Notes under the pieces: generated by a model
The model's database searches: none
What the model saw: only the letters and a program-made list of their open reading frames with translations
What the model was told of the DNA's origin: nothing
Shown: positions 19,943 to 36,731 of the stretch, piece after piece
Position numbering within the stretch: the first letter of the stretch is position 1
Layout of the letters: every line of letters starts with the position of its first letter
NCBI GenBank assembly: GCA_045580755.1
Contig: JAZNOI010000129.1
Coordinates: forward strand, 1 to 59,932
Length of the DNA: 59,932 bases
Source: Eubacteriales bacterium
Lineage (GTDB): Bacteria; Bacillota; Clostridia; Oscillospirales; CAG-272
Reading direction: 5' to 3'
Position numbers and translations under genes: made by a program

Positions 19943-21103
19943 TTATTTACGAGAATATATAAATTCTTTTCTGCACAGCTCCGCATCTCCGCTGTGCAAT
20001 CCGCCCTCGATCAAAAGGGTATATCTCCCCTCTTTGACGTCATCGGTAAACAGTTTTTCGGAATACTCTGCCAGAGCTACTGCATTTTTGCCGTATCTTT
20101 CGTGGTATTCCGTCTTGTTTATCAAATTTCCGTCAGCATCGTACAGTTTTAAATAACAGTATATTATCGGATAATCGGAAGACACTACTCCGTTCAGTTT
20201 ACCCTTTTTAAGATTATCATCAGTCGGCTCTTCATCTAAAGCAATAAAAGGAACTATACTTTTATTCGTCTTATAGACTTCCAGCGTCATTGCCAGATAA
20301 TTCTTTTCAAAAAGAAGTTTAAAACTGTATTCTTTACCCACACGCCAAGTAGTTTTTACTCCATCGTTTCTTGTCTTGTCAAAAGAATCAGTCTGCTCAA
20401 TACAAACCAAATAACTATTTTCGGGATCTATTTTCCCGCCTGCCGTTACCACATGTGCTTTTTCCAAAACCATACGGACATGACATAATCCCGAAGTCTC
20501 ATTCTTCTGCATAATTATGTCGCCCATATCTGCCATGGCGTACGCTGCATATATCGCATCTTCCCCGTTCGCGTCCCTGATATCCGCCGTTTTCATTACT
20601 CCGTCAGGTACAACAAGATCTCCGTAAAGCTCACCTATATATTCTTTTTTAAAGCTCGGCATATACTGGCGGGCAATATGGTTGGCAATCGGAGAAAATT
20701 GCTGTATTGCGCAACCGGTAGACGAGTTGCATTCAACTCCCCATACGAAGAAATTAGTATCGGAAGAGTTTTTTACGGCATCCGGAGTCGGGTCACGAAA
20801 CTCGCCGTTGTTTTCTTCTATATTTTTTAAAAACTCACCCAAACTCCTGTTTGAGCTTGAATACGGAAGACCAACGTATTTTTCACCCTTTTCAAACGTG
20901 TGGCTGTATTTCCAGTTTTTTCTGTTAAGCCCCGTCGAATACGTTTCAGCACATACCCATTCAAGCGTAGCCATTTTTTTCATATGATCGACCGCCGCCT
21001 GACGAAAGCTTCCCTTTGGCAAGGAAAATGCAACAAATTTATAGTATTTAAACGGGAATATGCCTTCCGGTAATATGCCGTTTTCTGACTCATATCTCTC
21101 CAT
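19943..21103 (-). CDS. Cys/His-module protein, leaderless paralog (P1, 386 aa from MERYES)
   Basis: Colinear with P2 and P3 from the LPEG motif onward: FRQAAVDHM, YVGLPYSS, WGVECNSS, GDIIMQKNETSGLCHVRMV, SYLVCIEQTD. ATG has GGAAGG 9 nt upstream and lies 16 nt after the P2 stop. The track's TTG start at 21184 would overlap P2. Confidence 0.7.
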   Translation of the reverse strand: MERYESENGILPEGIFPFKYYKFVAFSLPKGSFRQAAVDHMKKMATLEWVCAETYSTGLNRKNWKYSHTFEKGEKYVGLPYSSSNRSLGEFLKNIEENNGEFRDPTPDAVKNSSDTNFFVWGVECNSSTGCAIQQFSPIANHIARQYMPSFKKEYIGELYGDLVVPDGVMKTADIRDANGEDAIYAAYAMADMGDIIMQKNETSGLCHVRMVLEKAHVVTAGGKIDPENSYLVCIEQTDSFDKTRNDGVKTTWRVGKEYSFKLLFEKNYLAMTLEVYKTNKSIVPFIALDEEPTDDNLKKGKLNGVVSSDYPIIYCYLKLYDADGNLINKTEYHERYGKNAVALAEYSEKLFTDDVKEGRYTLLIEGGLHSGDAELCRKEFIYSRK

Positions 21104-21119
21104 ACGTATATTCCTTCCG

Positions 21120-22403
21120 TTAGCCTTTATACTCAAAATCGATCCTACACAACTCAGCTTCACCGCAGTAAAGCCCCGCTTCAATTACAAACGTGTATTT
21201 CCCCTCTCTTACCCCATCAAACAATGGAAAAGAGTAATTTCTTAAAGATATTTTAAAACCGCCCATTCTATCCTGTCTTATTTCTCTCTTTACCAAATTT
21301 CCTTGTGTATCATACAAGCTCATATAACAATACTGAATAGGATAATCCGAGCTGACCGTTCCTACGATAAGTCCTTTTGAAAGCTGTTCCTCAGACGTAG
21401 CTGTGTCCAACGCCAAATAAGGTATGACCGATACGTTTTTTTCATATATCTCAAAAGTGATCGGAACGTAGTTCTTTTCGTATAGTTCTGAAAAAGTATA
21501 CTTTTTGTCAACTCTCCAAGTGGTCTTTACTCCGTCTTTTCTCGTTGTATCAAACGCGTCCGTCTGTTCGGTACAAAGAACATAGCTTCTTCCGGGAATG
21601 ATCTTTCCCGCAACTGTTTTTGAAACCACAGGGGCCTGGGATATCATTCTTACATGACAAACTCCGGCAGTTTCATTTTTGCTCATAATAATATCACCAA
21701 GTCCAAGCGAGGTATACGAATTATACATAACATCCGCAGTATTCTCTGCGATTATATCCGCAGTCTTTTGCAGTCCCGGCGTCACTTTGTAGTCACCGCA
21801 GATAACGCCCACAAATTCGTCCGTAAAGCTTGGCATATACTGGCGGGCGACGCTTCTTACATCGGGAGTAAAAAGCTGGAAACACGCCGTCGTCGCCGAA
21901 CTGCATTCCAATCCCCATATATCCCAAGACTGTTCTCCGTCCGAATATTTTGAAGCACAGCTGAACGTGCCATCGTGTTCGCTTATATACTTTTTAAACT
22001 CACTGAGAGGTCTGTTAAACGACGAGTAGGGCAATCCCCTATAAGTATTCCCCTTTGTATACTCAAGCGAGTACTTCCAGTTTTCTCTGTCTTTTCCGGT
22101 AGAAAAGGTCTCACCGCATACCCACTCAAAATTTGCAAGCTCTTTCATACGGTCAACCGCTGCCTGTCTGAAATTTTCCGGCAGATCAAACTTCACAAAC
22201 GAATAGTATTCATCGGGATCGACACCTTCGGGTAAATCGCTCCTTGGAGTTTCATCTGTCGGAGGCGGATCCTCTCCCTTCGGACTTTCACTCGTGGTAT
22301 CCGCATTCCCGTTCGCTGCTTCCGGTTCTTTTTGCGCCGTTCCGCAAGCACACGCGGCAACGCAAAAAACAAAGATCAATGCATATATAATAATCTTTTT
22401 CAT
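21120..22403 (-). CDS. Cys/His-module lipoprotein (P2, 427 aa), function unknown, possibly a papain-fold/NlpC-P60-like hydrolase
   Basis: MKKIIIYALIFVFCVAAC lipobox, a Pro/Glu/Asp-rich linker, then FRQAAVDRM, YRGLPYSS, WGLECSSA, GDIIMSKNETAGVCHVRMI, SYVLCTEQTD. GGAGG RBS. Confidence 0.7.
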   Translation of the reverse strand: MKKIIIYALIFVFCVAACACGTAQKEPEAANGNADTTSESPKGEDPPPTDETPRSDLPEGVDPDEYYSFVKFDLPENFRQAAVDRMKELANFEWVCGETFSTGKDRENWKYSLEYTKGNTYRGLPYSSFNRPLSEFKKYISEHDGTFSCASKYSDGEQSWDIWGLECSSATTACFQLFTPDVRSVARQYMPSFTDEFVGVICGDYKVTPGLQKTADIIAENTADVMYNSYTSLGLGDIIMSKNETAGVCHVRMISQAPVVSKTVAGKIIPGRSYVLCTEQTDAFDTTRKDGVKTTWRVDKKYTFSELYEKNYVPITFEIYEKNVSVIPYLALDTATSEEQLSKGLIVGTVSSDYPIQYCYMSLYDTQGNLVKREIRQDRMGGFKISLRNYSFPLFDGVREGKYTFVIEAGLYCGEAELCRIDFEYKG

Positions 22404-22530: not shown

Positions 22531-23262
22531 ATGAACAACCAATACGTATCCACAACTCCAAAAAATAAAGTTAAATACCCGTTACATCGACACAAGAGCT
22601 GGGAAATACTTTACTATCTCAGCGGGAAGGGATATCTTGAAACTCCGGGAAAGAACCTATTTTTCGAACCCGGAACGATCATCGTAGTCCCCCCGAAATT
22701 GCTTCATGGCTCCGTGTCAGAAAACGGTTTTAAAAACATATCTATGGGTGGAGATTACGGTCACCTTTTTATGACGAACGAGCCATTCGCCGTAACCGAT
22801 CCCCCCAACCGAGAAGGAAAGATCTTGGCAGAACTGATCTATGCGAACAGGTTCTCCTCCCCGGATTACCTTTCTGCACTGTGTACGGCTTTCATACGCT
22901 TTATTCTCCAAAACTCAACACACGAAACTCAGCTTTCACGCACGGTATCACAAATCATAGTTGATATTACAGAGCATTTTTCCGACCCAAATTTCAACGT
23001 TACTTCTGCTTTAAACAAAAGCGGATATGCCGAAGACTATATAAGAGCAAAATTCAAAGAGATCACCAACAAAACACCAATTCGGTTTTTGACAGAAATG
23101 AGGGTCGAGCATGCAAAAAAACTATTTGAGATATACGGATACAGCCGCTCAGTTGCAGAAATAGCCGAGGGGTGCGGTTATAACGATCCGATCTATTTTA
23201 CAAGAGTTTTCAAAAAAATCGTCGGTATCTCTCCCGATGCCTTTAGAACACAAGCAATTTAA
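22531..23262 (+). CDS. AraC/XylS-family transcriptional regulator (cupin plus HTH)
   Basis: N-terminus HRHKSWEILYYLSGKGYLE..VVPPKLLHG (cupin). C-terminus SALNKSGYAEDYIRAKFKEITNKTPIRFLTEMRVEHAKKLF..VAEIAEGCGYNDPIYFTRVFKKIVGISPDAFR. Confidence 0.85.
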   Translation: MNNQYVSTTPKNKVKYPLHRHKSWEILYYLSGKGYLETPGKNLFFEPGTIIVVPPKLLHGSVSENGFKNISMGGDYGHLFMTNEPFAVTDPPNREGKILAELIYANRFSSPDYLSALCTAFIRFILQNSTHETQLSRTVSQIIVDITEHFSDPNFNVTSALNKSGYAEDYIRAKFKEITNKTPIRFLTEMRVEHAKKLFEIYGYSRSVAEIAEGCGYNDPIYFTRVFKKIVGISPDAFRTQAI

Positions 23263-23270: not shown

Positions 23271-23307
23271 AGTGTTGCAGAGCAAACGCTCTACAACACT
23301 TTTTTGT
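23271..23307. terminator. Bidirectional terminator overlapping the last codons of coaX
   Basis: AAGTGTTGCAGAGC-AAAC-GCTCTACAACACTT followed by TTTTT, preceded by an A-run. Confidence 0.6.
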
Positions 23308-24070
23308 TCTTGTTATAAATGATTCCCAAACCTTTTAGCAATAAATACTCATCCGTTATGCTCTTCCGTTTTGTATGTTTGCAGATAAAACCTGCCAAAC
23401 CTCCCGTAGTTACAATAGTTTCGGGTTCTCTTCCGAGCTCCTCTGCAAAACGGTCAATAATACCGTCAATAGCTCCGGCATAACCGTATACTACACCCGA
23501 GCGCATACAATCAACGGTGCCCGAGGCTATGGCTTTTTTGGGCAAAGCCACGTCTATCTTAGGCAAAAGCGCAGCTTCGTCGGCTAAGGCGTTAAGCGAT
23601 ACGTTGATTCCCGGCATAAATGCTCCGCCGATAAACCTTCCGTTTTCGTCGACAACGGTCAACGTAGTGGCAGTTCCCATATCAACGATAACACAAGGCA
23701 GACCGTATTCCTCTTTTGCTCCGACGGCGGTCGCAACAAGATCCGAAGCAACAGTTCCCGGATCGTCGGTTAAGATATGTATACCGCTTTTCACTCCGAC
23801 TCCGACGACCAAAGCGTCAAGCCCTGTGAGTATTTTCACAGCATCCTTCATTATTTGGGTTACAGGTGGCACAACAGACGAAATGATCGCGCCGTCAACT
23901 GCCGACGTATCAAAGCCGGACAAGCCAAGTATCTGTTTGATATCGGAAGCATATCCGAAAGAAGATTGTTTTTCGTCCGTCTTCATGCTCATAACCGGCG
24001 GAATGAGCCCTCCGTCGCCGAGCACTCCGAATACTATATGCGTATTTCCTACATTTATTGCAAGAATCAT
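23291..24070 (-). CDS. coaX: Type III pantothenate kinase
   Basis: MILAINVGNTHIVFGV.., ..VIVDMGTATT.., ..TGGLA. 259 aa. Confidence 0.85.
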   Translation of the reverse strand: MILAINVGNTHIVFGVLGDGGLIPPVMSMKTDEKQSSFGYASDIKQILGLSGFDTSAVDGAIISSVVPPVTQIMKDAVKILTGLDALVVGVGVKSGIHILTDDPGTVASDLVATAVGAKEEYGLPCVIVDMGTATTLTVVDENGRFIGGAFMPGINVSLNALADEAALLPKIDVALPKKAIASGTVDCMRSGVVYGYAGAIDGIIDRFAEELGREPETIVTTGGLAGFICKHTKRKSITDEYLLLKGLGIIYNKNKKVL

Positions 24071-24082
24071 ATCTGTTCTCTC

Positions 24083-24691: not shown

Positions 24692-24743
24692 ATAAAATAC
24701 CTCCTGCTACTGTCCCGATCAATTTCGGGTATAGTGCACAGTA

Positions 24744-24772: not shown

Positions 24773-24815
24773 GACTCAAGACTAAAGGTGAGACCCGCGG
24801 TTTGCACGGGCAAAA

Positions 24816-24847: not shown

Positions 24848-24860
24848 CTTTATACTCATA

Positions 24861-26306
24861 TCAGTTATTATACTTTGTGCCGAGTACGATCGCCACGACT
24901 ACAAGTGCAATTATAAGAACGGCAATTCCTATAAATACCCATGTAAAAATATTGTTCGAGAAGATCGAATCTCCGTCTTTCTCTTCCTCGTCATTTTTCT
25001 CATCATCCGTATTCGGAGCTTTTGTTTCGGGTGTGTCTGCCTTGTCCGTTTCGGGTTCCGTCGTTTCCTCTTCCTCTGCTTCTCCCATTTCGGCAAAAGC
25101 AAATCTCTGGAAAGTCTTTTCCAAGGGATCGTACATATACAAAGTCTTTTGACCTGCAGCGCCTATAGCATAAACCAAACAGTGATTGGGCTCTTCTGCG
25201 TTTGAAGGAACAAGCGCCTCTACGTTTTTACCGTCAACGGTAAACGTACCGAGTTCATAACCCTCGGGCGCTTCAACTATCTTCACGTCGAGTAACATCA
25301 GAGAGTTCTGTGTCTGACCCAAATATTCAAAAGGTTTTGCCGTCATATTCTGAACGTCAACAAAATAGAAACCTTCGGGAACCTTGTCGTTACCGAGCAG
25401 ATAAACAGCAGGACTTCCGTATTCATCGTAGCGGATAGCATTCACCTCAACGTCTCCGAGAGTCAAAAGCACGACCTCGAATCCCTTCGGAACCTTGTTC
25501 GCGTCTACGGTTTTGGCAACCTCAGCCGTTACGCCCTCGCCTAACGTCAGGAAAACGTCGGTAGACAGAGGGTTCTTCCCTCTTGTAACTTTTATCGTAT
25601 ATATTTTCTTTGCTCCGTTTTCGGCAGTGACCGTAATTGCGATAGCGTTATCTCCGACCGCGAGTGAGTCGTTTCCGCTAACGTAGACCGATGCTCCGTT
25701 GTGGTTCTTTATAGCCGAAACTGCGATCGACTTAACCGAAAAGTCAACCGATGCCGTATATTCCGTAACATTTGGAGAAAAAGCAGGTGAAAGAACTCCG
25801 TTTCCGATCGTCAGCCCTTTAAGCGTTGCATCCGACGAAGCTTCGGGAACAGGTTTTATATTGATCGCCGAGTAACCGATCGCGCCGTGAGTAAGCTCAT
25901 CGCCGCTTCCGCTGAAGAATTTCACTCCCGACGGATTCAAAGTAGTAGTTCCCGTTTTTTTCGTCTTAAAAGTAAGAGTAAAGCTCATTTTTGTTACAGA
26001 ACCCGAGTTGGTCATATCGGATACCTGTATTACTCCGCCTTTGTCTACGCCCGAAAACCAGTTGGTATTTCCGTATGCGGAGACAAACTGCAAATACGAC
26101 GTATCGTACGTTATGTTCATCTGATGTCCGCCGAGGTTATCGCCCTTTACGTCAACAACGACGCTGACGTTGTTTCCGACCGTTACGGTCGGGTCGGTAA
26201 ACCAAAGCGATGCCGATGCCGCACTTGCATTCAATGCAAACAGCACGGCGGTCAAGCATACTATCACACAAGCCGTTACAATATGTAATAATCTTCTTCT
26301 GTTCAT
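24861..26306 (-). CDS. Membrane-anchored surface protein: signal peptide, cohesin-like domain, cadherin-like beta-sandwich, acidic linker, C-terminal TM helix
   Basis: Start taken at MNRRRLLHIV. Cohesin-like VGNNVSVVVDVKGDNLGGHQMNITYDTSYLQFVS. Cadherin-like LKGLTIGNGVLSPAFSPNVTEYTASV..KIYTIKVTR. Acidic EAEEEETTEPETDK linker, then WVFIGIAVLIIALVVVAIVLG. Confidence 0.6.
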   Translation of the reverse strand: MNRRRLLHIVTACVIVCLTAVLFALNASAASASLWFTDPTVTVGNNVSVVVDVKGDNLGGHQMNITYDTSYLQFVSAYGNTNWFSGVDKGGVIQVSDMTNSGSVTKMSFTLTFKTKKTGTTTLNPSGVKFFSGSGDELTHGAIGYSAINIKPVPEASSDATLKGLTIGNGVLSPAFSPNVTEYTASVDFSVKSIAVSAIKNHNGASVYVSGNDSLAVGDNAIAITVTAENGAKKIYTIKVTRGKNPLSTDVFLTLGEGVTAEVAKTVDANKVPKGFEVVLLTLGDVEVNAIRYDEYGSPAVYLLGNDKVPEGFYFVDVQNMTAKPFEYLGQTQNSLMLLDVKIVEAPEGYELGTFTVDGKNVEALVPSNAEEPNHCLVYAIGAAGQKTLYMYDPLEKTFQRFAFAEMGEAEEEETTEPETDKADTPETKAPNTDDEKNDEEEKDGDSIFSNNIFTWVFIGIAVLIIALVVVAIVLGTKYNN

Positions 26307-26333
26307 ATAAATTCCTCTATAATTCATCAACAA

Positions 26334-28502
26334 TTACAGCCAAGCAGTACCGAGTGTATGATTTCGGATCTTCAAAAGGTCGCCTATAGTTATCGTTCCG
26401 TCTCCGTCGATATCTCCGCACAGCATTTGAATATCATTCAAATTGCCCGATCCGAGCATCTTGTTTCGCACTTTCAAAAGGTCGCCTACGTTTACGTTTC
26501 CGTCTCCGTCGATATCACCCTTGACAGCTGCAGTGTACTTGGCATAAGACATACCGTTTGTCGTAAACACCTCTATAACATCGCCCGTTACGATCGCGTC
26601 GGTAGTGTTTTTCACCGTGCCGTCAGCCTTTTTGACGACTATATCGCCAAGACTTATAAAGCGGGATTTGAAATCAGCTATTTTCATTCCGGGAGAAATT
26701 CCGGGTACAGCCGAATTCTTTACAACAAAATTGTTCGTAAAGCTTACGTCTCCGAAAGTATCGGATTCTTCTTTCGCAACGGTAAGTTTGTACGTCCTAA
26801 CCGTTCCGTTTCCTGCCGTAACCTTTATTTCGAACACGCTGTTTCCTTCAGAGATCGCGTGCTGTCCGACACCCTCCGTCTTTGCAGTTCCCTCCATTGT
26901 AACAGCGTTGATATTGATCGAGTTTACACTGGGCGGAAGAACGAGCATGTATTCAAGAACGTCGGGATTGAAATCGGGAGTGAGTGTATATCCTTCAACA
27001 GTCAACGATGAAAGCTTCATATTCGGCGAACCGTCACCCTTAGGCTGAGGACAAGGTTTTTCCGGCATCTTGTCATATATCGGTATATAGAAGGAGAGGG
27101 GTGTTTCTCTAAGCTCTTGCGTATAACCCGTCGCAAGTCTCGTCGCTTCAACAGCGGGACCGTATGCCGAAGTCATATACTGATGTGTAAAAGGATGGTC
27201 GCCCTGAACGTTAAATCTCTTTAAGTACAGAGTGTTCTGTCCTACCGTTATGTATCCGTCAGCATAGAAATACGCTCCGCCTTCAATAGCCTTCAGTCTC
27301 GTATTCCATGGACGTAGATAAGTCGTACTTCCTTCCCATCCGCCTTTCGCATACCAAAGACCTCTTTGTATCGGGTTCATTCCGTTTGCCGTATAAGCGC
27401 CTATATTATAATAATTGTAGTAACCTACGTATCCGGGATAAGTTCCGGAAATAATACTTGATCCCTGACTTCCGACCTCGATTATGATCATGGACGACAA
27501 AACGTAGGGGTTGACCTTATATTTTGTTCCCGCGTTAAAGATCGCCTCTGCATAATTCAAAGTAGTTCCGTCTGCGTCTACAACGTCTTTTTCCATAAAC
27601 GTGCCCGCAATAACTCGCTTTACTCCGTCTATCGTCTGAACATTTGGATCGTAGCTCTGATCAAGGAACTGGAATACAGAGTTCACTCCGAGGAAGTTTC
27701 TGGGGTCCATATAGTGCATTATTACTTCTTTAGAGGCTCTGACCCATCTGTCGCCGTCATATATCAGCCACTGGTTCGTCTCCCAGTTATACGCTCCGTT
27801 TTCAACAGATTTCCACGATGACGGGAACGAGTTTTCTACCAAGCTTTTGTCAAGCTGCTGCGAAACGGCATAATCGAATTCAAAGCCAGTATGATGCGCC
27901 TTAAATACCCAGTTCGGATAAAGGTTATGTAGCTCACGCAAATACGGTTTATAGCTTTCGGGGAACTTCTGTTCATCCAAATAAGCTTCAAAATCAAAGG
28001 GTTCGGGCTCGGGTTCGGTAGTTTCGCCCGGTGCTGTCGTCTCACCGTCGGGGGACGTTGTTTCGCCGTCGGGAGCAGTGGTTTCACCGTCGGGAGCAGT
28101 AGTCTCTCCCGGAGCTGTCGTCTCGCCGTCGGGAGCGGAAGTATCGGGAGCTGCCGTAGTAACTTCACCCGTGATCTGTACGTAGTGAGCCGTAACGTAA
28201 CCTACGTGATTATTGACCTCGACCAGATACCAAAGATCGGTATCTCTGATCGTCTCTCCCCTCTTTTCGCCGATAATAATAACGGTCGCTCCGCTGTCCA
28301 CCGCGCATACGACTGCAGTGCCCGTGCTTGCATCTGCACGAACGTTAAGCGGAATACCGGGAGAGGTGGTTATCACACCGTATTTTTTCGTATACGGTTC
28401 GGCTCCGAAGATCGTATAGCCAACCGTAGCGAGAAATACAGCCAGGATAAGCACCGCCAATGCAAACTTCTTTATTCTGTTTTGACCAAAGTCAAAGCTC
28501 AT
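26334..28502 (-). CDS. Secreted SH3b / GH73-type glucosaminidase-like / cadherin-like / type I dockerin protein (722 aa)
   Basis: SH3b-like LNVRADASTGTAVV..LWYLVEVNNHVGYVTAHYV. Tandem TAPDGET linker. Glucosaminidase-like NPYVLSSMIIIEVGSQGSS..YNYYNIGAY..GGAYFYADGYI. LSSLTVEGYTLTPDFNPDVLEY. C-terminal GDIDGDGNVNVGDLLKVRN..GDIDGDGTITIGDLLKIRN (two dockerin calcium loops). Confidence 0.7.
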   Translation of the reverse strand: MSFDFGQNRIKKFALAVLILAVFLATVGYTIFGAEPYTKKYGVITTSPGIPLNVRADASTGTAVVCAVDSGATVIIIGEKRGETIRDTDLWYLVEVNNHVGYVTAHYVQITGEVTTAAPDTSAPDGETTAPGETTAPDGETTAPDGETTSPDGETTAPGETTEPEPEPFDFEAYLDEQKFPESYKPYLRELHNLYPNWVFKAHHTGFEFDYAVSQQLDKSLVENSFPSSWKSVENGAYNWETNQWLIYDGDRWVRASKEVIMHYMDPRNFLGVNSVFQFLDQSYDPNVQTIDGVKRVIAGTFMEKDVVDADGTTLNYAEAIFNAGTKYKVNPYVLSSMIIIEVGSQGSSIISGTYPGYVGYYNYYNIGAYTANGMNPIQRGLWYAKGGWEGSTTYLRPWNTRLKAIEGGAYFYADGYITVGQNTLYLKRFNVQGDHPFTHQYMTSAYGPAVEATRLATGYTQELRETPLSFYIPIYDKMPEKPCPQPKGDGSPNMKLSSLTVEGYTLTPDFNPDVLEYMLVLPPSVNSININAVTMEGTAKTEGVGQHAISEGNSVFEIKVTAGNGTVRTYKLTVAKEESDTFGDVSFTNNFVVKNSAVPGISPGMKIADFKSRFISLGDIVVKKADGTVKNTTDAIVTGDVIEVFTTNGMSYAKYTAAVKGDIDGDGNVNVGDLLKVRNKMLGSGNLNDIQMLCGDIDGDGTITIGDLLKIRNHTLGTAWL
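28019..28140 (-). repeat. In-frame tandem repeat of about 21 nt encoding the (T)APDGET(T) linker
   Basis: Repeated GTTTC(G/A)CCGTCGGGAGCAGT(G/A) units. The protein reads APDGETTAPGETTAPDGETTAPDGETTSPDGETTAPGETT. Confidence 0.7.
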
Positions 28503-28894: not shown

Positions 28895-31800
28895 TTAAGA
28901 AGCTGTTACCGTTATCCTGTCAAGCTCGACCGTGCCTACGGCAAGCTCAGCTTTAAGAGTATAGGTATAGCTCTTGCCGATGTAATTCGGACGATAGAGG
29001 TATTTGCCGGGATTGTCGTTATACGTTGTTTGTGTAGACGTAAACAAGTTGCCGACCGAATACGAGTTCTTGTTTGTCAAAGCTCTTGCAGTCGCCGTGT
29101 ATACAGTTCCGTCTTCAAGTTCGATCGTCGCATATACCGCAAGTATGGGATAGTTCGATTCGATTATACCCATCTGACCCGACGTTGCGGTCTCGAGATT
29201 AGACTTCGTTGCTTTACGCGTGAGTCCGATATAATGGTTTTCCGACTCATTCGTCTTGAATTCGGTAGGTCTCAAAATAATCGCCGCCGAGTCTCCTGTC
29301 GCGAGAAGGCTAAATGAATACTTGTGCTCCCAGAACGTTGAATCGTAACCGCTTTCCGGTGTCCAGTTGATAGATTCTCCGTTCTTCGCAACTCCATATA
29401 CCTCACTTTCAAGCGTATCGGTCTGCTCAAGCATCAGTATATAGCTCTTGTCGGGATCGATCCTGCCCGTCGTATCATCTCTCACAACGTGTGTCTCCTG
29501 AACAAGACGGGTATGTCCGCCGGTTGAAAGCTTATATACGAAGTCTCCCTTTTCAGCCAAAGCATAAGATTCATACAAAGCCTCGGCACCGTACGTTTTT
29601 ACCAAAGATCCCGTGTAAGAAGCAACTCCGTAGAAAATATCTTCCAATCCCAAGAGTCTCATATCCGGGTTACCTCTCGAGCTTGCATGGAGTCTGATCA
29701 CCTTCTGATAAGCGTGATACATAGACGCGCTGCAGTGGTTACCCATTACCCAGTTCCAGTCGGTTTTACCCGCAGGACCGGTATATGTATATACATTTAC
29801 ACCTAACTTGGAATTATACGTAGGCGTTTTGTCAAGAACGCTTTGGAAGTCCTCGAGAGTAGCTCTCATATTCGAGTACGTTACGCCCCTGTAAATCACA
29901 TTCTTTGTAAACTGGGTGTTAGGTACAAAGCCCGTGCCTCCGGTAAGGTTAGAGTAGTAAAACGTTTCGGCAGGCGTCCAATATACGTTCATCTGCTCTT
30001 TCATATGATCGATCACTGTCTGAGTCATATTGCTGAAGTCTGCGCCGAATTTATTTTCGTACGAAGCATACATGCTGTCCAACGAATAGAGAGGCTTGGT
30101 ATACGTATGGGAAACGACCGTCTTTTGTCCTTCATTTGCAATATCGGCTGACACGGTCAAAACATACTGTTTTCCCTCGACCATATAGCTGAGGATCTTG
30201 CTCATATCAAAACAAGAAAGGTCAAATTTATTAACGTTCTGATCTTTAACCGAGTTACAGTAAACCGTCTGGTCATAGAAAATTCCGTCGCCTTCATTTC
30301 TGCTGAGCTTAACGTTTACCGAAATGATCTGCTTGTTCGACTGAATACTGCCGGAAAGCTTACCCGTTCTCATAGCTTCATCAGCATCAAAGTTATTTAC
30401 CAAAACGGTAGTGTTCGACTGACAGCCGGTTGCAAGCTCAGGAAGAGTTACGGGAATATAGCCATTACTGTACAAGGTACTAAAAGTCATTGTAGTGCTA
30501 TAGAAATGAGTTTTTCCTCCGTTTTTATCACGAAGGGTGGGGCCGAACTGCATAAGCTTAAGCGAATTCGTTCCCGGAACAGCGTCTTCCATTACCATAT
30601 AAATACTGTTTCCGCCGCCCGTCGTACGAGCCAGAACAACGTCTCCGCGTTTGCACTGTGCATAAGCAGCGTTCATTGTTGCAGAGCCTGATGCATTCGT
30701 AATGGTGTCGGTGTAATTGGTTGATGAAGTATAGCTGTAATCACCTACCGTAAGAGTTCCCCTTCCGTATGAAGGAATAAACGATCTCAACGTGGTGAGC
30801 CATACAGCGTTTGTTCCAACCTTGTTCCAAACGTTGACGATCATACCCGTATAGTCGGTTGCCGGGAACAAAGTTGTTATTTCGTGGTATTTTTCATCGA
30901 CCTTGTATTTTTTAGTTTGAATATCATTATAAGGAGCCGTTCCCGATGTGTAAAGATCGTTTACGCCCTCGATCGGACCGAAATATACGTTCGTTCCGTC
31001 CTTAAACGGCTTTATATGTCTTTCAAACTCTTCAAACTCTGCTTTGCTGTTATTAACGTACGCCATGCCGTAATACGTCGTACCTGCAGAGTAGGTATAT
31101 TTTCCGTAATAATTGTTACCGCCCATCGTAACACTTTCGGTCAGATCAACATCTGTACTGGGCGTCCATTTGTAGTTCGCCATAGCATTCATTTCGGCAA
31201 CTACTATATCACGAAGTCTTTCTGCGTTTTCGCTGTCGTATACGGAGAGATTCTTATTTGTTTTGCCTGAAGTATACGCTTGATATCTGTCGATTATATT
31301 AGTAGTGATCCAAGCTACGTCCTCGTAAGACTTCTCTGCTGCGAGTTGTGCAACTCCAAGCACGCTTCTTCTCACGGGCTCGGAATACTCAATATAAGTT
31401 CTGCCGTCATGTTCGTATTCTATGTAAGCTATGGCAATTATATCTTTCGCATAGTCGTTAAGCTGAATATTGCCGTAAACGCCCGAGAAAGTAGTCTTGC
31501 TTTCGGTGTTATACATTCCGGTCTTGTCGTATTCGGCTCTGAATTTCGTGCCGTATGCCGTCATTTCATTTACGCCGTAAAGTTCTTCCAAAGAACCCAT
31601 ATCCTGCTCTTTAAGAACACTGCTGTCCCATGCGATAAATCCGTAATCCTTTACGGTTATGTGATCATCGCCCGAACCGAATGCCATCTCCGCAACGAAA
31701 CGGAGACCTGCATCAGTATCTTGCGTGCTTATCTGTGCTCCCAAAATAACGGGAACAGGGCTCTTTACGACAGTGATATCTTTGCTGAATCCGCTTATTG

Positions 31801-33145
31801 TTTTTCCACCGTAGGTTCCCGTTACTGTAGACGTTCCCTCTTTGGTGTTATCATAATCAAACTTGAAGTTTTTGTCCGTATCCGTATATTCAACAACAGC
31901 AGTCTTGTTGTTTGTATATTTTAAAGTAAGGGAAAGTCCGTCAGCTTCATACTCCTCGCCTACAAATCCGAGAGTGTTCGTCGAGTTTGTTTTCATTGTA
32001 ACCGAGCTGAGCATCTGAGTCGGATAATACACCGTTGAGCCGGAAATAGTACCTACGCTTGTAGCGGGATACTCAGAAAAGTCTACCGTAAGAATAGGAT
32101 CAAAACAGCCGGAAACAAGTGTTCCGTGATGCTTAGTAACCCAGGTCGCAGAAGTGAACGTGCCGCCGGATACCTTAATAGTAGCTTTTTGATTCTTATA
32201 TCCCGTGCCGACATTGTTCGAAGCGCAAATAGCCTCATTAAACGTTCCGCCCGTTACGTTTACATTTACTTCTCCGAAGTGGAATATAGAATTTGATCTG
32301 GAGCCTCCGATAACGTTGCTCATGAACGTTCCTCCGTTTATGTTAAGAGTAACGTCGCCTCTGTGAACGTCACCGGCATTTCCGTACATTCCGCCGTAGA
32401 CTCTGTACCAAGTACCGCTGTTTATCGTTACGTTTGTATCGTAGTTCAGGTCTCCGTATCTTTTTGTACCGCTTATAGAAAGATATTGAGCGTTCGACGA
32501 GGGAGTAACGATATTTCCCGCACTGTTTTCGTATACACAGTTCAAACCGTCACCAAAAACAGTATCATAACCACCACAGCAAATAGCAAGGTTGCTGTCG
32601 CACTGATCACCGCTGTTTCTTCCGGTCTTGCTGACAAAGGTCATATTCTCAAAAGTGGTTTTGCCGCCCAAGTTGAGATATGTTCCCTCGGTTATAACGA
32701 GCCTGCCGCCGTTTTGTGCTGTAATAGTTATCTCGTTGTTTCCGTGATCGGGCATATAGAAGTCTCTCTGGGTAGTTCTCGCACCGGCATACGTCTTTGA
32801 ATAATCCAATACAACGTCGCCGACAAGAACGAGAGTTCCCCCCGTCTTGCTGAGCTTTTCAGCAGCCTGATAAAGAACGCTGTTCATATAAAGCGTACGA
32901 TTTACGTAATAAGAGTAATCGTTTGAGGGATCTCCATCATCCAACAGCGTAGTGTCCGCATCGTTTGGAACCCTTTCAACCAATTCAGGACCAAGAGGAC
33001 TGCTTGCCGATGATCCGTCTCCCGTTCCGTTATCCGAAATGTAGATAACGTTTGTTGCCGCACTTGCAGGTACGATCGCTACGGATATTACAACCGTGAG
33101 CATCACCAACAGTGCCAACAATGAATAACGAACAAAATACTTCAT
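28895..33145 (-). CDS. Large secreted surface protein (1416 aa): signal peptide, GGxF beta-helix-type repeats, Big_3-like Ig domain, then two tandem copies of the Cys/His module (first copy degenerate)
   Basis: Start at MKYFVRYSLLALLVMLTVVISVAIVPASA (GGAGAG RBS). Repeats LNINGGTFMSNVIGGS, VNVTGGTFNEAICAS, IKVSGGTFTSATWV. Ig-like GFVGEEYEADGLSLTLKYTNNKTAVV..GTSTVTGTYGGKT. Module D1 is about nt 30089-31231 and D2 about nt 28898-30061. Confidence 0.75.
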   Translation of the reverse strand: MKYFVRYSLLALLVMLTVVISVAIVPASAATNVIYISDNGTGDGSSASSPLGPELVERVPNDADTTLLDDGDPSNDYSYYVNRTLYMNSVLYQAAEKLSKTGGTLVLVGDVVLDYSKTYAGARTTQRDFYMPDHGNNEITITAQNGGRLVITEGTYLNLGGKTTFENMTFVSKTGRNSGDQCDSNLAICCGGYDTVFGDGLNCVYENSAGNIVTPSSNAQYLSISGTKRYGDLNYDTNVTINSGTWYRVYGGMYGNAGDVHRGDVTLNINGGTFMSNVIGGSRSNSIFHFGEVNVNVTGGTFNEAICASNNVGTGYKNQKATIKVSGGTFTSATWVTKHHGTLVSGCFDPILTVDFSEYPATSVGTISGSTVYYPTQMLSSVTMKTNSTNTLGFVGEEYEADGLSLTLKYTNNKTAVVEYTDTDKNFKFDYDNTKEGTSTVTGTYGGKTISGFSKDITVVKSPVPVILGAQISTQDTDAGLRFVAEMAFGSGDDHITVKDYGFIAWDSSVLKEQDMGSLEELYGVNEMTAYGTKFRAEYDKTGMYNTESKTTFSGVYGNIQLNDYAKDIIAIAYIEYEHDGRTYIEYSEPVRRSVLGVAQLAAEKSYEDVAWITTNIIDRYQAYTSGKTNKNLSVYDSENAERLRDIVVAEMNAMANYKWTPSTDVDLTESVTMGGNNYYGKYTYSAGTTYYGMAYVNNSKAEFEEFERHIKPFKDGTNVYFGPIEGVNDLYTSGTAPYNDIQTKKYKVDEKYHEITTLFPATDYTGMIVNVWNKVGTNAVWLTTLRSFIPSYGRGTLTVGDYSYTSSTNYTDTITNASGSATMNAAYAQCKRGDVVLARTTGGGNSIYMVMEDAVPGTNSLKLMQFGPTLRDKNGGKTHFYSTTMTFSTLYSNGYIPVTLPELATGCQSNTTVLVNNFDADEAMRTGKLSGSIQSNKQIISVNVKLSRNEGDGIFYDQTVYCNSVKDQNVNKFDLSCFDMSKILSYMVEGKQYVLTVSADIANEGQKTVVSHTYTKPLYSLDSMYASYENKFGADFSNMTQTVIDHMKEQMNVYWTPAETFYYSNLTGGTGFVPNTQFTKNVIYRGVTYSNMRATLEDFQSVLDKTPTYNSKLGVNVYTYTGPAGKTDWNWVMGNHCSASMYHAYQKVIRLHASSRGNPDMRLLGLEDIFYGVASYTGSLVKTYGAEALYESYALAEKGDFVYKLSTGGHTRLVQETHVVRDDTTGRIDPDKSYILMLEQTDTLESEVYGVAKNGESINWTPESGYDSTFWEHKYSFSLLATGDSAAIILRPTEFKTNESENHYIGLTRKATKSNLETATSGQMGIIESNYPILAVYATIELEDGTVYTATARALTNKNSYSVGNLFTSTQTTYNDNPGKYLYRPNYIGKSYTYTLKAELAVGTVELDRITVTAS

Positions 33146-33176
33146 AGTGTACTCTCCAAAAATCATAATTATAAAC

Positions 33177-33205
33177 ATTTTACACTAATACTCAATTGTT
33201 GTCAA
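33177..33205 (-). promoter_or_regulatory. Promoter TTGACA-17-TAAAAT (minus strand) for the 1416-aa gene
   Basis: Read on the reverse complement, about 30 nt upstream of the ATG at 33145. Confidence 0.45.
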
Positions 33206-33426: not shown

Positions 33427-34404
33427 TTAAAAGCATACTACAAACAAATAGTAGATAAGCGGAATCGTAACGACTGCAAACGTACTGGATATGATTGCCA
33501 TCGAAGCACCGGTCTTTGTCTCCCCTCCGTATGCGGCGGGAAATACTATCGTATTAAGTCCGATCGGCGCTGCATATGCTATCATTGCCAAAATAATAAT
33601 ATCTTTGTCGATCGACTCGATTCCAAACAGCTTCAGCGCAATTATAACCAACGACGGTATAACCAAAAGTCTCAAAGCCGCAAGAATATATACTTTAACG
33701 TTTTTGAACAGCTCGCCAATGTTGTAGTTTCCTATAACCATACCCGCAAGCAACATTGCAATAGGTCCCATACAGTTACCCGCATTAGTGATAACAGTAT
33801 TTGCAAACGGGGGAATATATTTATTCAACCCAAAAAGACCTATCAGAATACCGGCTACCAAAGCAATTATAGGCGGTGATAAAAGTCCTTTTCTCAAATT
33901 CTTCAAAACACTCTGGTTTCTGTCTTTCGGTATAAGAATATACAGTCCCCAGCCATAGCAAGCGATCGACAGTCCCAAAGTAAACATCGAATATTTGAAG
34001 AACATATCCATTCCCCAAATCTCTTTGATCAAAAAGTTACCCACAAATCCGTAGTTTGCCAAAGCAATAGCATATCTGTATACGTTTCTTGTATAATCTT
34101 TTTCTCTGCTTTCTTTGTAATCCTTAACAAACAGCTTGGAAATAGGGCCCGAAATAATTATGACAACCAAAATAATTATCGCACTGCTAAGTACGATAAC
34201 ACCGCTCTTTTTCAGTGTCTCGGGGGTACATTTTTCGATCTGCCCCGACAGTGTCAAAGCGGGGGAAAATATAAAAAGCTCCATTCTTGATAAATTGGCG
34301 TGCGCCCGTTCATCAACTATATTCTTTTTTCTCAACACATAACCAATTGCCATAAGAGTAAATATTACGAGCATCTGGTTTATGGTTTTTGTCAAAATAT
34401 CCAT
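33427..34404 (-). CDS. AEC-family (auxin efflux carrier / malate-permease-like) membrane transporter
   Basis: 325 aa, about 10 TM helices. MDILTKTINQMLVIFTLMAIGYVLRKK..NLSRMELFIFSPAL and a C-terminal repeat half are typical of the Mem_trans family. Confidence 0.7.
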   Translation of the reverse strand: MDILTKTINQMLVIFTLMAIGYVLRKKNIVDERAHANLSRMELFIFSPALTLSGQIEKCTPETLKKSGVIVLSSAIIILVVIIISGPISKLFVKDYKESREKDYTRNVYRYAIALANYGFVGNFLIKEIWGMDMFFKYSMFTLGLSIACYGWGLYILIPKDRNQSVLKNLRKGLLSPPIIALVAGILIGLFGLNKYIPPFANTVITNAGNCMGPIAMLLAGMVIGNYNIGELFKNVKVYILAALRLLVIPSLVIIALKLFGIESIDKDIIILAMIAYAAPIGLNTIVFPAAYGGETKTGASMAIISSTFAVVTIPLIYYLFVVCF

Positions 34405-34482: not shown

Positions 34483-35412
34483 TTACTGAAGATCAATAAG
34501 ATCCTGCAATCTTATATGCTTATATCCGTTTTCAAGTGTGGTCTTAATAGCCCACTCTACTTTGTCTGCGAAATCGGGTTCATAAGCAAAATAATCATCA
34601 TAGAAGTACTGCTCGTGCATAAGGAAGCAAACGTGCTCCTGACCCATAACAGCATTAAATCTCTCGGGGAAATCTGCAAGTCTTATAGCGTTCATAGTAA
34701 TTCCTGCAAATCTGTTGTAGATCATACCTGTTTCGGGATCTTTGTACATCTTGATCTTTCCGAGGTATTTGTCTGCCATCTTGTTGTCAAGGTGGTTATA
34801 GTTACACATACTGGGAGCACCGATAAGACCGCAAGTATCTCTTCTGCAAATACCTGCACGGCTTACGTTCAATCTCTTGTTCATCTCGAATCTGAAGTTG
34901 TGATCTGTCGAGAATACGCTTCTGATCTCGGGATACTCGAGAAGGTCACCCGTTGTGCACGACATCATCTTTGCACCCTTGTCAACCAATGCCTGAACAC
35001 CCTCTTTTGTCATTACTACCCAGTGAGTGATAAGGCTCTGTGTTATAACCTCTTTGCCTGCAAATCTGATGATCTCTTTTTCTATCAAGGAATAGTCGCA
35101 CCATACTTCTTCATAAGTAGCGTTTATGTAAGGATAGTCGGGGCATTCATGTCTTGCATGGAAACCGAGCATCAACCAATCTTTATTTGCCTGGAATTCT
35201 TCTTTGTAGGCATCAGTCATCTGACTAAGATTAAACGTCTTGTCGATATTTTCATAGAAAAGGTTGAACTGAACCTTGAGACCGTACTTTTCATGAAGCT
35301 CTTTGTGAAACTTGAGATAAGGATCGTCGAAAAGGCTCGCAGGTCTGTTCTTCGTGAGGTTTTCCAAAAATCTGATGTTGTCATCAACAAAATAAGTAGA
35401 ATACTTGTTCAT
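34483..35412 (-). CDS. Cytoplasmic hypothetical protein, possibly a divergent NodB/CE4-like deacetylase fold
   Basis: Start at MNKYSTYF (GAGGAA RBS). YFVDDN resembles the TFDD motif and GFHARHE resembles H-x-x-H. No signal peptide. The function call is weak. Confidence 0.3.
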   Translation of the reverse strand: MNKYSTYFVDDNIRFLENLTKNRPASLFDDPYLKFHKELHEKYGLKVQFNLFYENIDKTFNLSQMTDAYKEEFQANKDWLMLGFHARHECPDYPYINATYEEVWCDYSLIEKEIIRFAGKEVITQSLITHWVVMTKEGVQALVDKGAKMMSCTTGDLLEYPEIRSVFSTDHNFRFEMNKRLNVSRAGICRRDTCGLIGAPSMCNYNHLDNKMADKYLGKIKMYKDPETGMIYNRFAGITMNAIRLADFPERFNAVMGQEHVCFLMHEQYFYDDYFAYEPDFADKVEWAIKTTLENGYKHIRLQDLIDLQ

Positions 35413-35477
35413 AATTTTTTCCTCTTTTCGCATGTATAAAACACTTTATAGTTTAACTGACTATTTTTAAAAAACAA

Positions 35478-36731
35478 TTATTTGTATTTAAAGTTGACCC
35501 TGCAAAGCTCTGCATTGCCTGCACAAAGTCCTGCTTCAATAAGAAGAGTATATTCTTCTCCTGCAACTATCGACTCGTTGAAGAGATTGAAAGAATGCTT
35601 TCTGAGGTTGATCTTGTACGTATCGTAGGGATCCTGCTGAATAACTCTGTTTACGAGCTTGCCGTTCTTATTGTAAAGGCTTACATAGCAATATTTAATG
35701 GGGTAGTCGGACGAAACGGTTCCGGACAACATACCGTTCGAAAGCGAGCTTTCACTGACGGAGTCGAGAGCAAGATACGGAATTACGGACACGCCGGTTT
35801 CATACTCTTCGATAGTAACGGGAATGTAATTCGTAGCCAAAAGCTGTGTAAATGTATACTGATGGTCTACCCACCAAGTCGTCTTTGTATCAGTTCTTGT
35901 AGCGTCAAATGTATCGGTCTGCTCAATAGTAACGAGATAGCTTCTGTTGGGGTTGATCTTGCCGTTCTTTTCCGTTATAACGCAGTCAACGACCATACGA
36001 AGGTGAGATACGCCTCTGGGCTCATCCTTTGTCATAATAACGTCGCCCTTCTTTGCTGCAGAGTAAGCCTGGTACATTACATCCTGAGTATTTGCATTAA
36101 TGATCTCTGCTGAAGTTTCAACGCCTGCCGGAACCTTATAGTTACCGCAGATCTTACCGAAAAATTCATCAGTAAAGCTGGGCATAAACGTACGGGACGT
36201 TCCGTCAGCTCTAGGGGTAAACTGCTGCATAGAATGGGTAATCGAGGTGTTACACTGTACACCCATTACGTCATAATAGCTGTCTGCCGTGCTGGGATAC
36301 TTGTTCTTGTTCTCTTTCAAAACCTTCTGGAACTCTTCTATAGTAGACATCATCGCCGCATAGGGGAGACCTGTATAAGTGGTACCCACGGTGTAGTTCA
36401 ATTCGAACTTCCAGTCACCGAAGTCATGCTTATAACCAAAGTTGTTTTTGGGAGACCAGACAATGCTCGCCTGCTTTCTCATGTGGTCTACTGCTGCCTG
36501 TCTGAAGTCTTCGGGGAGCTCAAATTGTACGAACTTGTAGTAATCGTCAGGGTTAATACCTTCGGGCAAACTGCTCTTGGGTTTTTCATCGGTAGTTCCG
36601 GGATCAGTCTGTTCACCACCCTGTCCTGTTGTAACAGCAGTAGTGTCCTGCTGGGTTCCGCCGTTGTTTCCGCATGAAACAAGCGCCAAACAGAAGGAAA
36701 ATGCTAAAACGAGTGCTAAAAATTTCTTCAT
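35478..36731 (-). CDS. Cys/His-module lipoprotein (P3, 417 aa)
   Basis: MKKFLALVLAFSFCLALVSC lipobox, Thr/Gly/Gln linker, FRQAAVDHM, YTGLPYAA, MGVQCNTS, GDVIMTKDEPRGVSHLRMV, SYLVTIEQTD. AAGGAG RBS. Confidence 0.7.
   Translation of the reverse strand: MKKFLALVLAFSFCLALVSCGNNGGTQQDTTAVTTGQGGEQTDPGTTDEKPKSSLPEGINPDDYYKFVQFELPEDFRQAAVDHMRKQASIVWSPKNNFGYKHDFGDWKFELNYTVGTTYTGLPYAAMMSTIEEFQKVLKENKNKYPSTADSYYDVMGVQCNTSITHSMQQFTPRADGTSRTFMPSFTDEFFGKICGNYKVPAGVETSAEIINANTQDVMYQAYSAAKKGDVIMTKDEPRGVSHLRMVVDCVITEKNGKINPNRSYLVTIEQTDTFDATRTDTKTTWWVDHQYTFTQLLATNYIPVTIEEYETGVSVIPYLALDSVSESSLSNGMLSGTVSSDYPIKYCYVSLYNKNGKLVNRVIQQDPYDTYKINLRKHSFNLFNESIVAGEEYTLLIEAGLCAGNAELCRVNFKYK

Follow-up and report, generated by a model that had tools for sequence, protein, structure and literature searches.

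A repeated, previously unannotated protein module of gut and rumen Clostridia as a probable branch of the NlpC/P60-CHAP superfamily

Five module copies and the family they define

The 59,932-nt contig JAZNOI010000129.1 from a member of the Eubacteriales (assembly GCA_045580755.1; Oscillospirales, CAG-272), the whole of which is referred to here as the window, encodes five copies of a protein module that had been picked out by an original prediction made from the sequence alone and proposed to be a papain-fold hydrolase. Three copies make up the single-module proteins P1, P2 and P3, and two lie in tandem in a large surface protein. The open reading frames (ORFs) of all four genes are present on the minus strand where the prediction placed them (Table 1). 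The length of 1416 amino acids (aa) given for the large protein holds if translation begins at Met12 (33145), where the ribosome-binding site (RBS) is better; the longest ORF encodes 1427 aa and starts at 33178.

P1, P2 and P3 are 43-51% identical to one another (BLASTP, E 1e-107 to 1e-143), and each of them matches the large protein twice, at aa ~650-1014 (22-23% identity, E 1e-7 to 1e-11) and at aa ~1017-1422 (25-28% identity, E 1e-17 to 1e-26). These matches are far beyond chance, so the five colinear copies are real and a chance repeat is ruled out as their source. All the motif blocks that had been named are seen in a five-way alignment: FRQAAVDHM, Y-x-G-L-P-Y, G-x-x-C-(N/S)-(S/T)-S, G-D-(I/V)-I-M...H-(V/L)-R-M-V, S-Y-L-V-x-x-E-Q-T-D and the C-terminal SSDYPI...IEAGL...AELCR. 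The Cys, His and EQTD claimed for all copies are found in four; in the N-terminal copy of the large protein (copy 1) Tyr758, Ser858 and Gln877 occupy the Cys, His and Glu positions, with Y-x-G-x-x-Y and GD still there. Copy 1 is thus a predicted pseudo-enzyme, possibly a binding module. The module is laid out as a catalytic-type domain of ~275 aa followed by an immunoglobulin (Ig)-like sandwich of ~100 aa (FlgD_ig/DUF3244-like).

Table 1. Features of the module locus in the window (positions in nucleotides; HMM, hidden Markov model; the large protein is numbered in aa from the 1427-aa ORF)
Feature	Position	Strand	Description
P1	19943..21103	-	386 aa, single module; ORF, RBS GGAAGGA before ATG 21103
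P1 catalytic-type domain	20255-21082	-	aa 8-283
P1 triad	Cys125 20729-20731, His208 20480-20482, Glu236 20396-20398	-	alignment
P2	21120..22403	-	427-aa lipoprotein; signal peptide with lipobox Cys, low-complexity stalk aa ~22-52
P2 catalytic-type domain	21426-22247	-	aa 53-326, then Ig-like beta-sandwich aa ~329-427
P2 triad	Cys167 21903-21905, His250 21654-21656, Glu279 21567-21569	-	GD236-237; Y121/G123/Y126 motif
P3	35478..36731	-	417-aa lipoprotein, single module
P3 catalytic-type domain	35784-36584	-	aa 50-316
P3 triad	Cys160 36252-36254, His243 36003-36005, Glu270 35922-35924	-	alignment
Large surface protein	28895..33145	-	1416 aa from Met12; signal peptide, two tandem modules, weak Big_3 match
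Large protein copy 1	30137..31228	-	aa ~651-1014, degenerate
Large protein copy 2	28895..30079	-	aa 1034-1427, intact
Large protein copy 2 triad	Cys1149 29732-29734, His1222 29513-29515, Glu1251 29426-29428	-	
AraC-family regulator A	22531..23262	+	AraC_binding/cupin and HTH_18 (Pfam); divergent from P2
AraC-family regulator B	36935..37786	+	HTH_AraC/HTH_18 (Pfam); divergent from P3
Mem_trans/auxin-efflux-carrier (AEC) transporter	33427..34404	-	Pfam; NCBIfam TIGR00946 below cut-off
U316	34483..35412	-	~309 aa, longest ORF to 35433; cytoplasmic, second unassigned family
Cohesin and cadherin-like protein	24861..26333	-	Cohesin 24.0 bits (cut-off 24.1 bits); Cadherin-like E 2.6e-14
722-aa glucosaminidase protein	26334..28502	-	SH3_3, GH73-like N-acetylglucosaminidase, cadherin-like, dockerin (Pfam)
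VanY	37829-38953		adjoins the cluster
GH20 and Glyco_H_20C_C tandem genes	8805-10766, 10797-12689	+	GcnA-like beta-N-acetylhexosaminidase

The prediction could place the module in no named family, and the searches agree: none of the five window copies has a Pfam or NCBIfam match for it, and neither single sequences nor profiles of 29 and 93 sequences matched any PDB sequence over the catalytic part. What did match in the PDB (phmmer and profiles) was the signal peptide or, to a weak degree, the Ig-like part at the C-terminus. The module is not claimed by any characterised family. Its nearest approaches to named families are sub-threshold: two of 93 family members give matches to PF00877 (best E 0.0041) and two to PF05257 (best E 0.0059), none of which reaches the gathering score, and an HMM of MepS run against the family members with filters off gave no meaningful match. 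A word-indexed search over 5.8 billion proteins yielded 25 close relatives, all unnamed or "hypothetical" and from Clostridia and Ruminococcaceae metagenome-assembled genomes (MAGs). In an exhaustive HMMER search of representatives clustered at 50% identity, 710 proteins fell within the family at E<=1e-3; at E<=1e-10 there were 354, and at E<=1e-30 there were 57. The members with names are from uncultured Clostridia of gut and rumen, in Lachnospiraceae, Oscillospiraceae, Acutalibacteraceae, Ruminococcaceae and Eubacteriales/Clostridia MAGs (goat rectum, faeces), a taxonomic picture of the wide family that rests on a few named cluster members, the contig scan covering six loci of the close subfamily. 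Their annotations are "hypothetical" or taken from anchor domains only. The MAG RGIG2965 has at least seven module copies on at least four contigs. A phage lysin origin was rejected on the lack of any module match in the annotated phage and plasmid collections. We found no description of this family in the literature, and the module family is real and previously unannotated.

Both P2 (...VAACAC followed by G) and P3 (...LALVSC followed by G) have a lipobox by hydrophobicity and the lipobox rule, their matches to NCBIfam lipoprotein-signal models being weak (P3 E 4e-5, below the curated cut-off); these are the two copies rightly described as lipoproteins with low-complexity stalks. The large protein starts with a plain signal peptide or a transmembrane segment. 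That the module is secreted therefore holds for P2, P3 and the large protein and fails for P1, as no signal peptide was found in P1 or in its orthologs P0007, P0008 and P0010; judged from its sequence, P1 is a predicted cytoplasmic paralog. A lipobox is present in 84 of 109 single-module proteins of the family; another 7 start with a plain signal peptide, and in 18 there is no signal peptide. Multidomain members carry SLH, CWB2, dockerin, BspA-type LRR or Big_3 domains, which are Gram-positive surface-display devices; in addition, P0145 carries a CHAP domain and P0168 a Lipase_3 domain.

The N-terminal region of the large protein (~600 aa; 31259-33067, minus strand, aa ~38-640) matches nothing in Pfam or among PDB sequences. 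The region is also N-terminal in many relatives with dockerins or modules (P0043, P0050, P0054, P0059, P0065 and P0068), and it forms a stand-alone 489-aa gene beside two modules in the relative locus L005 (12713-14182). It is a third unassigned domain tied to the module.

Active-site residues and predicted fold

An HMM of the N-terminal domain collected 199 domains from 182 family proteins, for which P2 numbering is used here. Cys167 is kept in 177 of 192 aligned domains and His250 in 179 of 192, and position 279 is acidic in 181 of 194 (166 Glu and 15 Asp). The full triad is present in 173 of the 199 domains (C-H-E 158, C-H-D 15). Trp94, Gly123 and Asp237 are invariant, Tyr121, Tyr126, Gly164 and Ser273 are conserved at more than 90%, and Arg252 and Gln280 at 80-90%. 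Within the GD motif, Gly236 is kept in 166 of 194 domains and Asp237 in 194 of 194, even in the triad-less copies. Cys and His are lost together: both are present in 175 domains and neither in 11, with 3 mixed (Fisher P 4.5e-15). Every triad-less copy sits in a multi-copy protein with an intact copy, as in the large protein (Tyr-Ser-Gln, then Cys-His-Glu), and full-length single-copy proteins almost always retain the triad. The wider homologs thus show the conserved Cys, His and acid that had been singled out as the residues to check, and their conservation and co-loss is the behaviour expected of catalytic residues.

Non-catalytic surface-binding or adhesin domains that merely keep a papain-like scaffold could account for the existence and persistence of triad-less copies, for the Ig-like domain that follows the module and for the fusions to adhesin-type repeats (BspA LRR, Big_3), and there is a precedent without activity in RflaF_05439 (PMC3573020). 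We hold this explanation to be highly improbable. Family sequences that share the triad are only 25-30% identical, and yet 173 of 199 domains retain Cys, His and Glu/Asp; no protein has a dead copy without a live one as well, which is hard to explain without selection for catalysis.

The AlphaFold2 (AF2) model of P2, built from a 29-sequence alignment, has a mean predicted local distance difference test score (pLDDT) of 86.5 and a predicted template-modelling score (pTM) of 0.81. In it a disordered stalk (aa 16-50) leads to an alpha/beta domain (aa ~55-325), after which comes a beta-sandwich (aa ~329-427). The full-length model had only Ig/FN3-like Foldseek matches, on the C-terminal domain (DUF3244 4g5a, C5a-peptidase Fn domains), and several family members have Pfam FlgD_ig or DUF3244 in this sandwich, in agreement with Foldseek. 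Because the full-length matches only covered the Ig-like C-terminus, the N-terminal domain was modelled alone (pLDDT 88.1). In both models Cys167 is the first residue of a helix (167-175); GD236-237 stands at the opening of strand 238-243, His250 lies in strand 248-254 and Glu279 in strand 274-280, and pLDDT exceeds 90 across the helix and strand segments that carry these residues. As modelled, this order of Cys-helix, GD, His and Glu strand is the canonical NlpC/P60/CHAP arrangement. A 2023 classification of papain-like proteins treats a GD motif on strand beta1 as the hallmark of their "cluster II", the NlpC/P60-CHAP-amidase cluster (PMC10318531), and the predicted structure has the cluster II features of a Cys at a helix N-terminus, GD on beta1, His on beta2 and a polar third residue on beta3.

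When the N-terminal domain was compared with the PDB by Foldseek, nearly all the top places went to enzymes of NlpC/P60, CHAP and the papain clan, including YkfC-like 3h41, RipB, Cg1735, Tse1, PlyPy, SpeB, calpain, RipA, trypanothione synthetase amidase and LytE. Against BFVD a CHAP-domain protein ranks first (E 8.1e-4, probability 1.00, 275 columns), and below it come TraH2, a TIGR02594 protein, an endolysin and an NlpC/P60 endopeptidase. A fold of the transglutaminase or PNGase type was rejected, the fold matches being NlpC/P60 and CHAP and the GD motif being present.

Relationship to NlpC/P60 and CHAP

The 199-domain family profile was compared by hhalign with two target profiles: a CHAP profile made from the Pfam-verified CHAP domain of the family member P0145 and 15 viral relatives, and an NlpC/P60 profile made from E. 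coli MepS (100% identity verified, PF00877) and 8 viral relatives. The comparison with CHAP scored 30.3 (probability 35%, P 4e-4) with Cys, GD, His and Glu in register; 200 column shuffles scored 11.7 +/- 2.2 (maximum 24.7) and the reversed profile 20.1. That with NlpC/P60 scored 28.4 (probability 26%, P 7e-4) with Cys, GD and His in register, the shuffles giving 12.5 +/- 2.4 (maximum 20.2). Both unmodified scores thus lie ~7-8 standard deviations above the column shuffles. For scale, CHAP against NlpC/P60 scored 41.6 (probability 90%, P 1.7e-6).

The Y-x-G-x-P-Y of the module corresponds to the NlpC/P60 "Y-L-G-V-P-Y-x-W-G-G" motif and stands ~40 residues before the Cys, against ~11-12 in NlpC/P60, so that the different spacing noted at the outset is borne out. 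Because a family-specific insertion widens this gap, P2 residues 130-160 were excised and the comparison with NlpC/P60 was repeated. The score rose to 42.4 (probability 89%, P 2.3e-6), with Y-x-G-x-P-Y, G-x-x-C-S, GD and His aligned, and ten same-size deletions elsewhere scored 27.7-33.3. The order of Y-x-G-x-P-Y, Cys and GD...His, predicted to echo NlpC/P60, is therefore in register with both families. The profiles suggest that the module is about as distant from NlpC/P60 or CHAP as those two are from each other; the formal significance of the link without the excision is borderline. The module may therefore be described as a core of the NlpC/P60 type in which large insertions stand and whose third residue is acidic, as in CHAP.

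The likeness to NlpC/P60 enzymes (PF00877, MEROPS C40: MepS/Spr, LytE, 3H41, RipA/RipB) lies in the common motif order of Y-x-G-x-P-Y, G-x-x-C-S, GD, His and a polar third residue; this family also supplies the top PDB fold matches, and many members of both are lipoproteins or wall-anchored, such as MepS. The differences are considerable. The distance from PY to Cys is 13 residues in MepS, and the module has extra insertions between the Cys helix and GD and between His and the third residue, which is Glu or Asp rather than the His of NlpC/P60; the triad of Cys, His and the EQTD acid that had been proposed for an NlpC/P60-like fold is thus conserved, but its acid is CHAP-like. An additional N-terminal alpha/beta sub-domain, the obligatory C-terminal Ig-like domain and the setting in an AraC-regulated cluster with a transporter further separate the module from NlpC/P60.

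With CHAP (PF05257; phage and staphylococcal lysins, glutathionylspermidine amidase domain) the module has the Cys-His-Glu set in common, as well as the strand "I-E-x-x" that carries the Glu (IEQT in the module, TIEGN in CHAP). CHAP is the sole statistically significant fold match (BFVD, E 8e-4), and P0145 is fused to a true CHAP domain. The module domain is about twice the size of CHAP, and its Y-x-G-x-P-Y is NlpC/P60-like, not CHAP-like. A Cys-His-Glu-Asn relay in CHAP was reportedly described by Rossi and colleagues in 2009. In the CHAP profile the relay Asn stands at Glu+2, where the module mostly has Thr (117 of 185 domains; Asn in 14), with Asn, Asp or Ser at Glu+3 instead, so the module does not reproduce this relay.

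RflaF_05439 of Ruminococcus flavefaciens FD-1 (PDB 4EZY) is a rumen surface protein with two tandem papain-like modules and a dockerin, whose NlpC/P60-superfamily nature was invisible in its sequence and recognised from the structure only; one repeat of a homolog is without the Cys, and its nearest structures are 2P1G (a putative "xylanase" from B. fragilis) and 2HBW (PMC3573020). It resembles the present family in its tandem modules, its triad of Cys, His and a polar residue and its conserved upstream Tyr. Its triad is Cys-His-Gln with a Cys-His spacing of 106 residues, against 83 in the module, and neither an Ig-like C-terminal domain nor lipoprotein forms are described for it. 4EZY was absent from the PDB profile searches (E<=10) and, for both models, from the best 50 Foldseek PDB matches listed; together with the Cys-His-Gln triad, this indicates that RflaF_05439 and the module belong to different families. 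In B. subtilis PgdS/YwtD, as cited in PMC3573020, three NlpC/P60 repeats include one functional copy, which parallels the dead copies that always stand beside a live one in the module family; the repeats of PgdS, however, are canonical PF00877 domains with poly-gamma-glutamate as their substrate, and no sequence relationship to the module was detected.

The module lies outside PF00877 and PF05257 proper, as it matches neither model above the gathering score. The module's membership of the NlpC/P60-CHAP superfamily is supported, at the level of sequence profiles and models, by four hallmarks of structure and sequence and by a likeness of profile and fold that exceeds chance. The proposal of a papain-fold, NlpC/P60-like domain is in agreement with the AF2 topology, the fold matches, the conservation of the triad and the profile register, as far as a model can tell.

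Gene cluster, proposed mechanism and substrate

In relatives at ~45-55% identity the modules form one contiguous cluster in the order SpoIVB, VanY, AraC-B, one to three lipoprotein modules, one or two U316 genes, Mem_trans, AraC-A, a lipoprotein module and a module without signal peptide. The divergent AraC-P2 and AraC-P3 type pairings and the position of the Mem_trans transporter inside the cluster are conserved in these relatives. L007 (2896-18359), a relative further removed, has seven module genes in alternation with seven AraC genes; there, 4182-11251 seems to be repeated at 11290-18359, either a true tandem duplication or an assembly artefact. L005 has three tandem module genes and no AraC. 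NlpC/P60 or CHAP genes were not found among the retrieved relative loci.

The gene u316 encodes a second unassigned protein, without a signal peptide and without any Pfam, NCBIfam or PDB-sequence match, including profile searches of PDB and Pfam. It is co-conserved with the modules, with one or two paralogs in relatives (L001 11334-13264; L002 5976-7884). Its invariant motifs are YFVDD and H-A-R-H-E, which we take to resemble motifs 1 and 2 of CE4/NodB deacetylases.

Compared with L001, L002, L008 and L011, the window has ~10 kb (23291-33178) inserted between AraC-A and Mem_trans, consisting of coaX, an ECF S-component, the cohesin protein, the 722-aa glucosaminidase-dockerin protein and the large two-module protein. 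The cohesin protein ends in a hydrophobic segment that, in the translation, resembles a transmembrane anchor, and is likely to be the cell-surface anchor for the neighbouring dockerin protein. The 722-aa protein is encoded immediately downstream of the large protein; its central region matches the Atl glucosaminidase (PDB 6FXO, E 5.4e-15) and also Autolysin E, and it has a SagB glucosaminidase match in NCBIfam (E 6.5e-19, below the curated cut-off). The block looks like a small cohesin-dockerin surface unit around cell-wall hydrolases. Two orthologs of the large protein have other neighbours: fragments of a GH20C hexosaminidase lie directly downstream of P0054 (L048 6273-8208), and P0059 (L049 302-4693) has as divergent neighbours an MBOAT and DHHW/ALGX pair, a VCA0040-like gene and an AraC gene. 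MBOAT and DHHW/ALGX pairs are a signature of cell-wall-polymer O-acylation systems.

An extracellular hydrolytic system with dedicated regulators, as originally predicted, is plausible: the AraC pairing is conserved in relatives, though the surface location fails for P1. The combination of surface enzymes, a cytosolic paralog, a transporter, cytosolic U316 and AraC regulators suggests inducible extracellular cleavage, uptake and intracellular completion. For catalysis, bond specificity and the steps of import and processing we infer the following scheme. The catalytic domain would consist of an N-terminal alpha/beta sub-domain and an NlpC/P60-type core with two family-specific insertions. By the thiol mechanism usual for such enzymes, the role of nucleophile would fall to Cys167, at the N-terminus of its helix, and that of general base to His250, one strand beyond the invariant GD strand; Glu279, on the next strand, would orient His250. 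Tyr121 and Tyr126 of Y-x-G-x-P-Y would probably contribute to the oxyanion or substrate site, by analogy with Tyr71 of RflaF_05439, for which an oxyanion-hole role has been proposed (PMC3573020). An acyl-enzyme intermediate would be formed on an amide bond, an ester being less likely. P2 and P3 would be tethered to the membrane's outer face as lipoproteins on low-complexity stalks, the large protein would display one dead and one live copy, and P1 would be cytoplasmic; by analogy, the Ig-like domain and the dead copies are probably spacers or binding modules. The surface enzymes would free a fragment that the transporter imports, and P1 and U316 would complete the job in the cell.

Peptidoglycan-type peptide or amide bonds in cell-wall material are our leading guess for the substrate, a tentative one. 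It is made because the close folds are peptidoglycan hydrolases and because GH73, GH20, VanY and CHAP are linked to the module by neighbourhood or fusion. A further reason is the top PDB match, 3h41, a B. cereus NlpC/P60 protein which we take to be of the YkfC type. YkfC is a cytoplasmic recycling endopeptidase and would parallel P1.

If the substrate is peptidoglycan, the modules could be housekeeping autolysins that remodel the cell's own wall in growth, division or sporulation and have no part in nutrient acquisition. The closest folds are indeed autolysins and endopeptidases (RipA/B, LytE, Cg1735, CHAP lysins), SLH and CWB2, the usual anchors of Gram-positive wall hydrolases, occur in relatives, VanY and SpoIVB keep their place next to the modules, and a GH73-like glucosaminidase adjoins the large protein. 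We nevertheless regard autolysis as unlikely. An AraC gene for each module gene or pair, with seven such pairs in L007, is typical of substrate-inducible catabolism; a transporter and two cytosolic proteins are co-conserved; a cytoplasmic P1-type paralog is conserved; copy number is high, as in RGIG2965; and some members are dockerin-borne. The AraC pairing, the transporter, the second unknown family and the surface and cytoplasmic paralogs point to an inducible pathway rather than classical autolysis.

The same fold could also have a target other than peptidoglycan, namely an amide or ester in some polymer or conjugate of plant, host or microbial origin, such as acyl or peptidyl glycan decorations, gamma-glutamyl polymers or lipid esters, with the released acid or peptide imported by the AEC transporter. 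The pairing with AraC/cupin regulators and the Mem_trans transporter would suit such a role, the dockerin fusions and the cohesin neighbour suggest cellulosome-like display, P0168 has a Lipase_3 fusion, and the hosts are rumen and gut fibre-associated Clostridia. The superfamily itself is chemically broad: besides NLPC_P60 and CHAP it includes LRAT (an acyltransferase) and C92 (PMC10318531), and poly-gamma-glutamate hydrolases such as PgdS are related to NlpC/P60 (PMC3573020; PMC5880399). Still, the conserved core cluster has no carbohydrate-active enzyme or esterase as a consistent neighbour, the recurring enzyme neighbours and fusions are all amino-sugar or cell-wall related (GH73, GH20, VanY, CHAP), and the best structural matches are peptidoglycan peptidases; a non-peptidoglycan substrate is in our view rather doubtful. 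A more specific idea is that the cluster is a Gram-positive cell-wall-polymer utilisation locus, through which uncultured Clostridia of gut and rumen would live on the peptidoglycan, or another peptide-decorated envelope polymer, of bacteria around them. Its parts would be the divergent AraC regulators, several surface lipoprotein amidases, the cytoplasmic paralog, the AEC-type transporter and U316 with its CE4-like DD and HxxH motifs, and each AraC/amidase pair would serve a different stem-peptide or linkage chemotype. We offer this as speculation that is more probably wrong than right by a good measure; if true, it would mean that the enzyme family is new and that two unannotated protein families together make up a new type of inducible catabolic system.

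Taken as a whole, the evidence is best explained by the module being a previously unannotated branch of the NlpC/P60-CHAP superfamily, comprising papain-fold cysteine amidohydrolases that work in an AraC-regulated surface system, and we consider this probable. Several observations weigh against it. Searches of HMM against sequence detect neither NlpC/P60 nor CHAP in the family, the unmodified profile-profile probabilities are only 26-35%, and the 89% hinges on the post hoc excision of one insertion. The best PDB fold match has E 0.1 and none is significant, with TM-scores of 0.2-0.5 overall and 0.43-0.50 when normalised by small targets. The link to peptidoglycan is circumstantial: the GH73/cohesin/dockerin block is absent from the related clusters, the neighbourhood of VanY and SpoIVB may be simple synteny, and the lack of phage or plasmid matches withholds lysin-type support. 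AraC regulators, dockerins and AEC (organic-anion-type) transporters suit the use of plant or host polymers equally well. Finally, for RflaF_05439, the nearest precedent, no activity was found (PMC3573020).

If the module is such a superfamily branch, several hundred clusters of "hypothetical" surface proteins of gut and rumen Clostridia would gain a fold, an active site and a thiol amidohydrolase chemistry, and Pfam and NCBIfam would gain a missing NlpC/P60-CHAP superfamily family. The superfamily itself is already known, so the conceptual surprise is moderate; what is new is the branch, its architecture and its genomic setting. Unusual within the superfamily are the large insertions in the core, the obligatory Ig-like C-terminal domain, the tandem of dead and live copies, the side-by-side surface and cytoplasmic paralogs and the one-to-one AraC pairing near a transporter and a second unknown family. 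An inducible pathway of this kind could bear on the turnover of necromass and peptidoglycan in the gut or on the removal of non-sugar decorations from dietary polymers.

Two other groups of genes lie in the window. A surface-polysaccharide cluster occupies 40499-59823 (minus strand) and encodes NTP_transferase, GHMP kinase, UDP-GlcNAc 2-epimerase, Polysacc_synt_2 and several GT4 proteins, together with a 501-aa ORF without a Pfam match (46415-47920, minus strand). GC content is 0.34-0.37 from ~46 kb onward and 0.40-0.46 elsewhere in the window, a drop which suggests that the cluster is a horizontally exchanged cassette. On the other side of the modules, a 913-aa ORF (14098-16839, minus strand) fuses two ABC_tran ATPase domains to a BPD_transp_2 permease, and adjoins a second permease (13106-14101) and a Bmp/PnrA-type binding lipoprotein (16925-18175).

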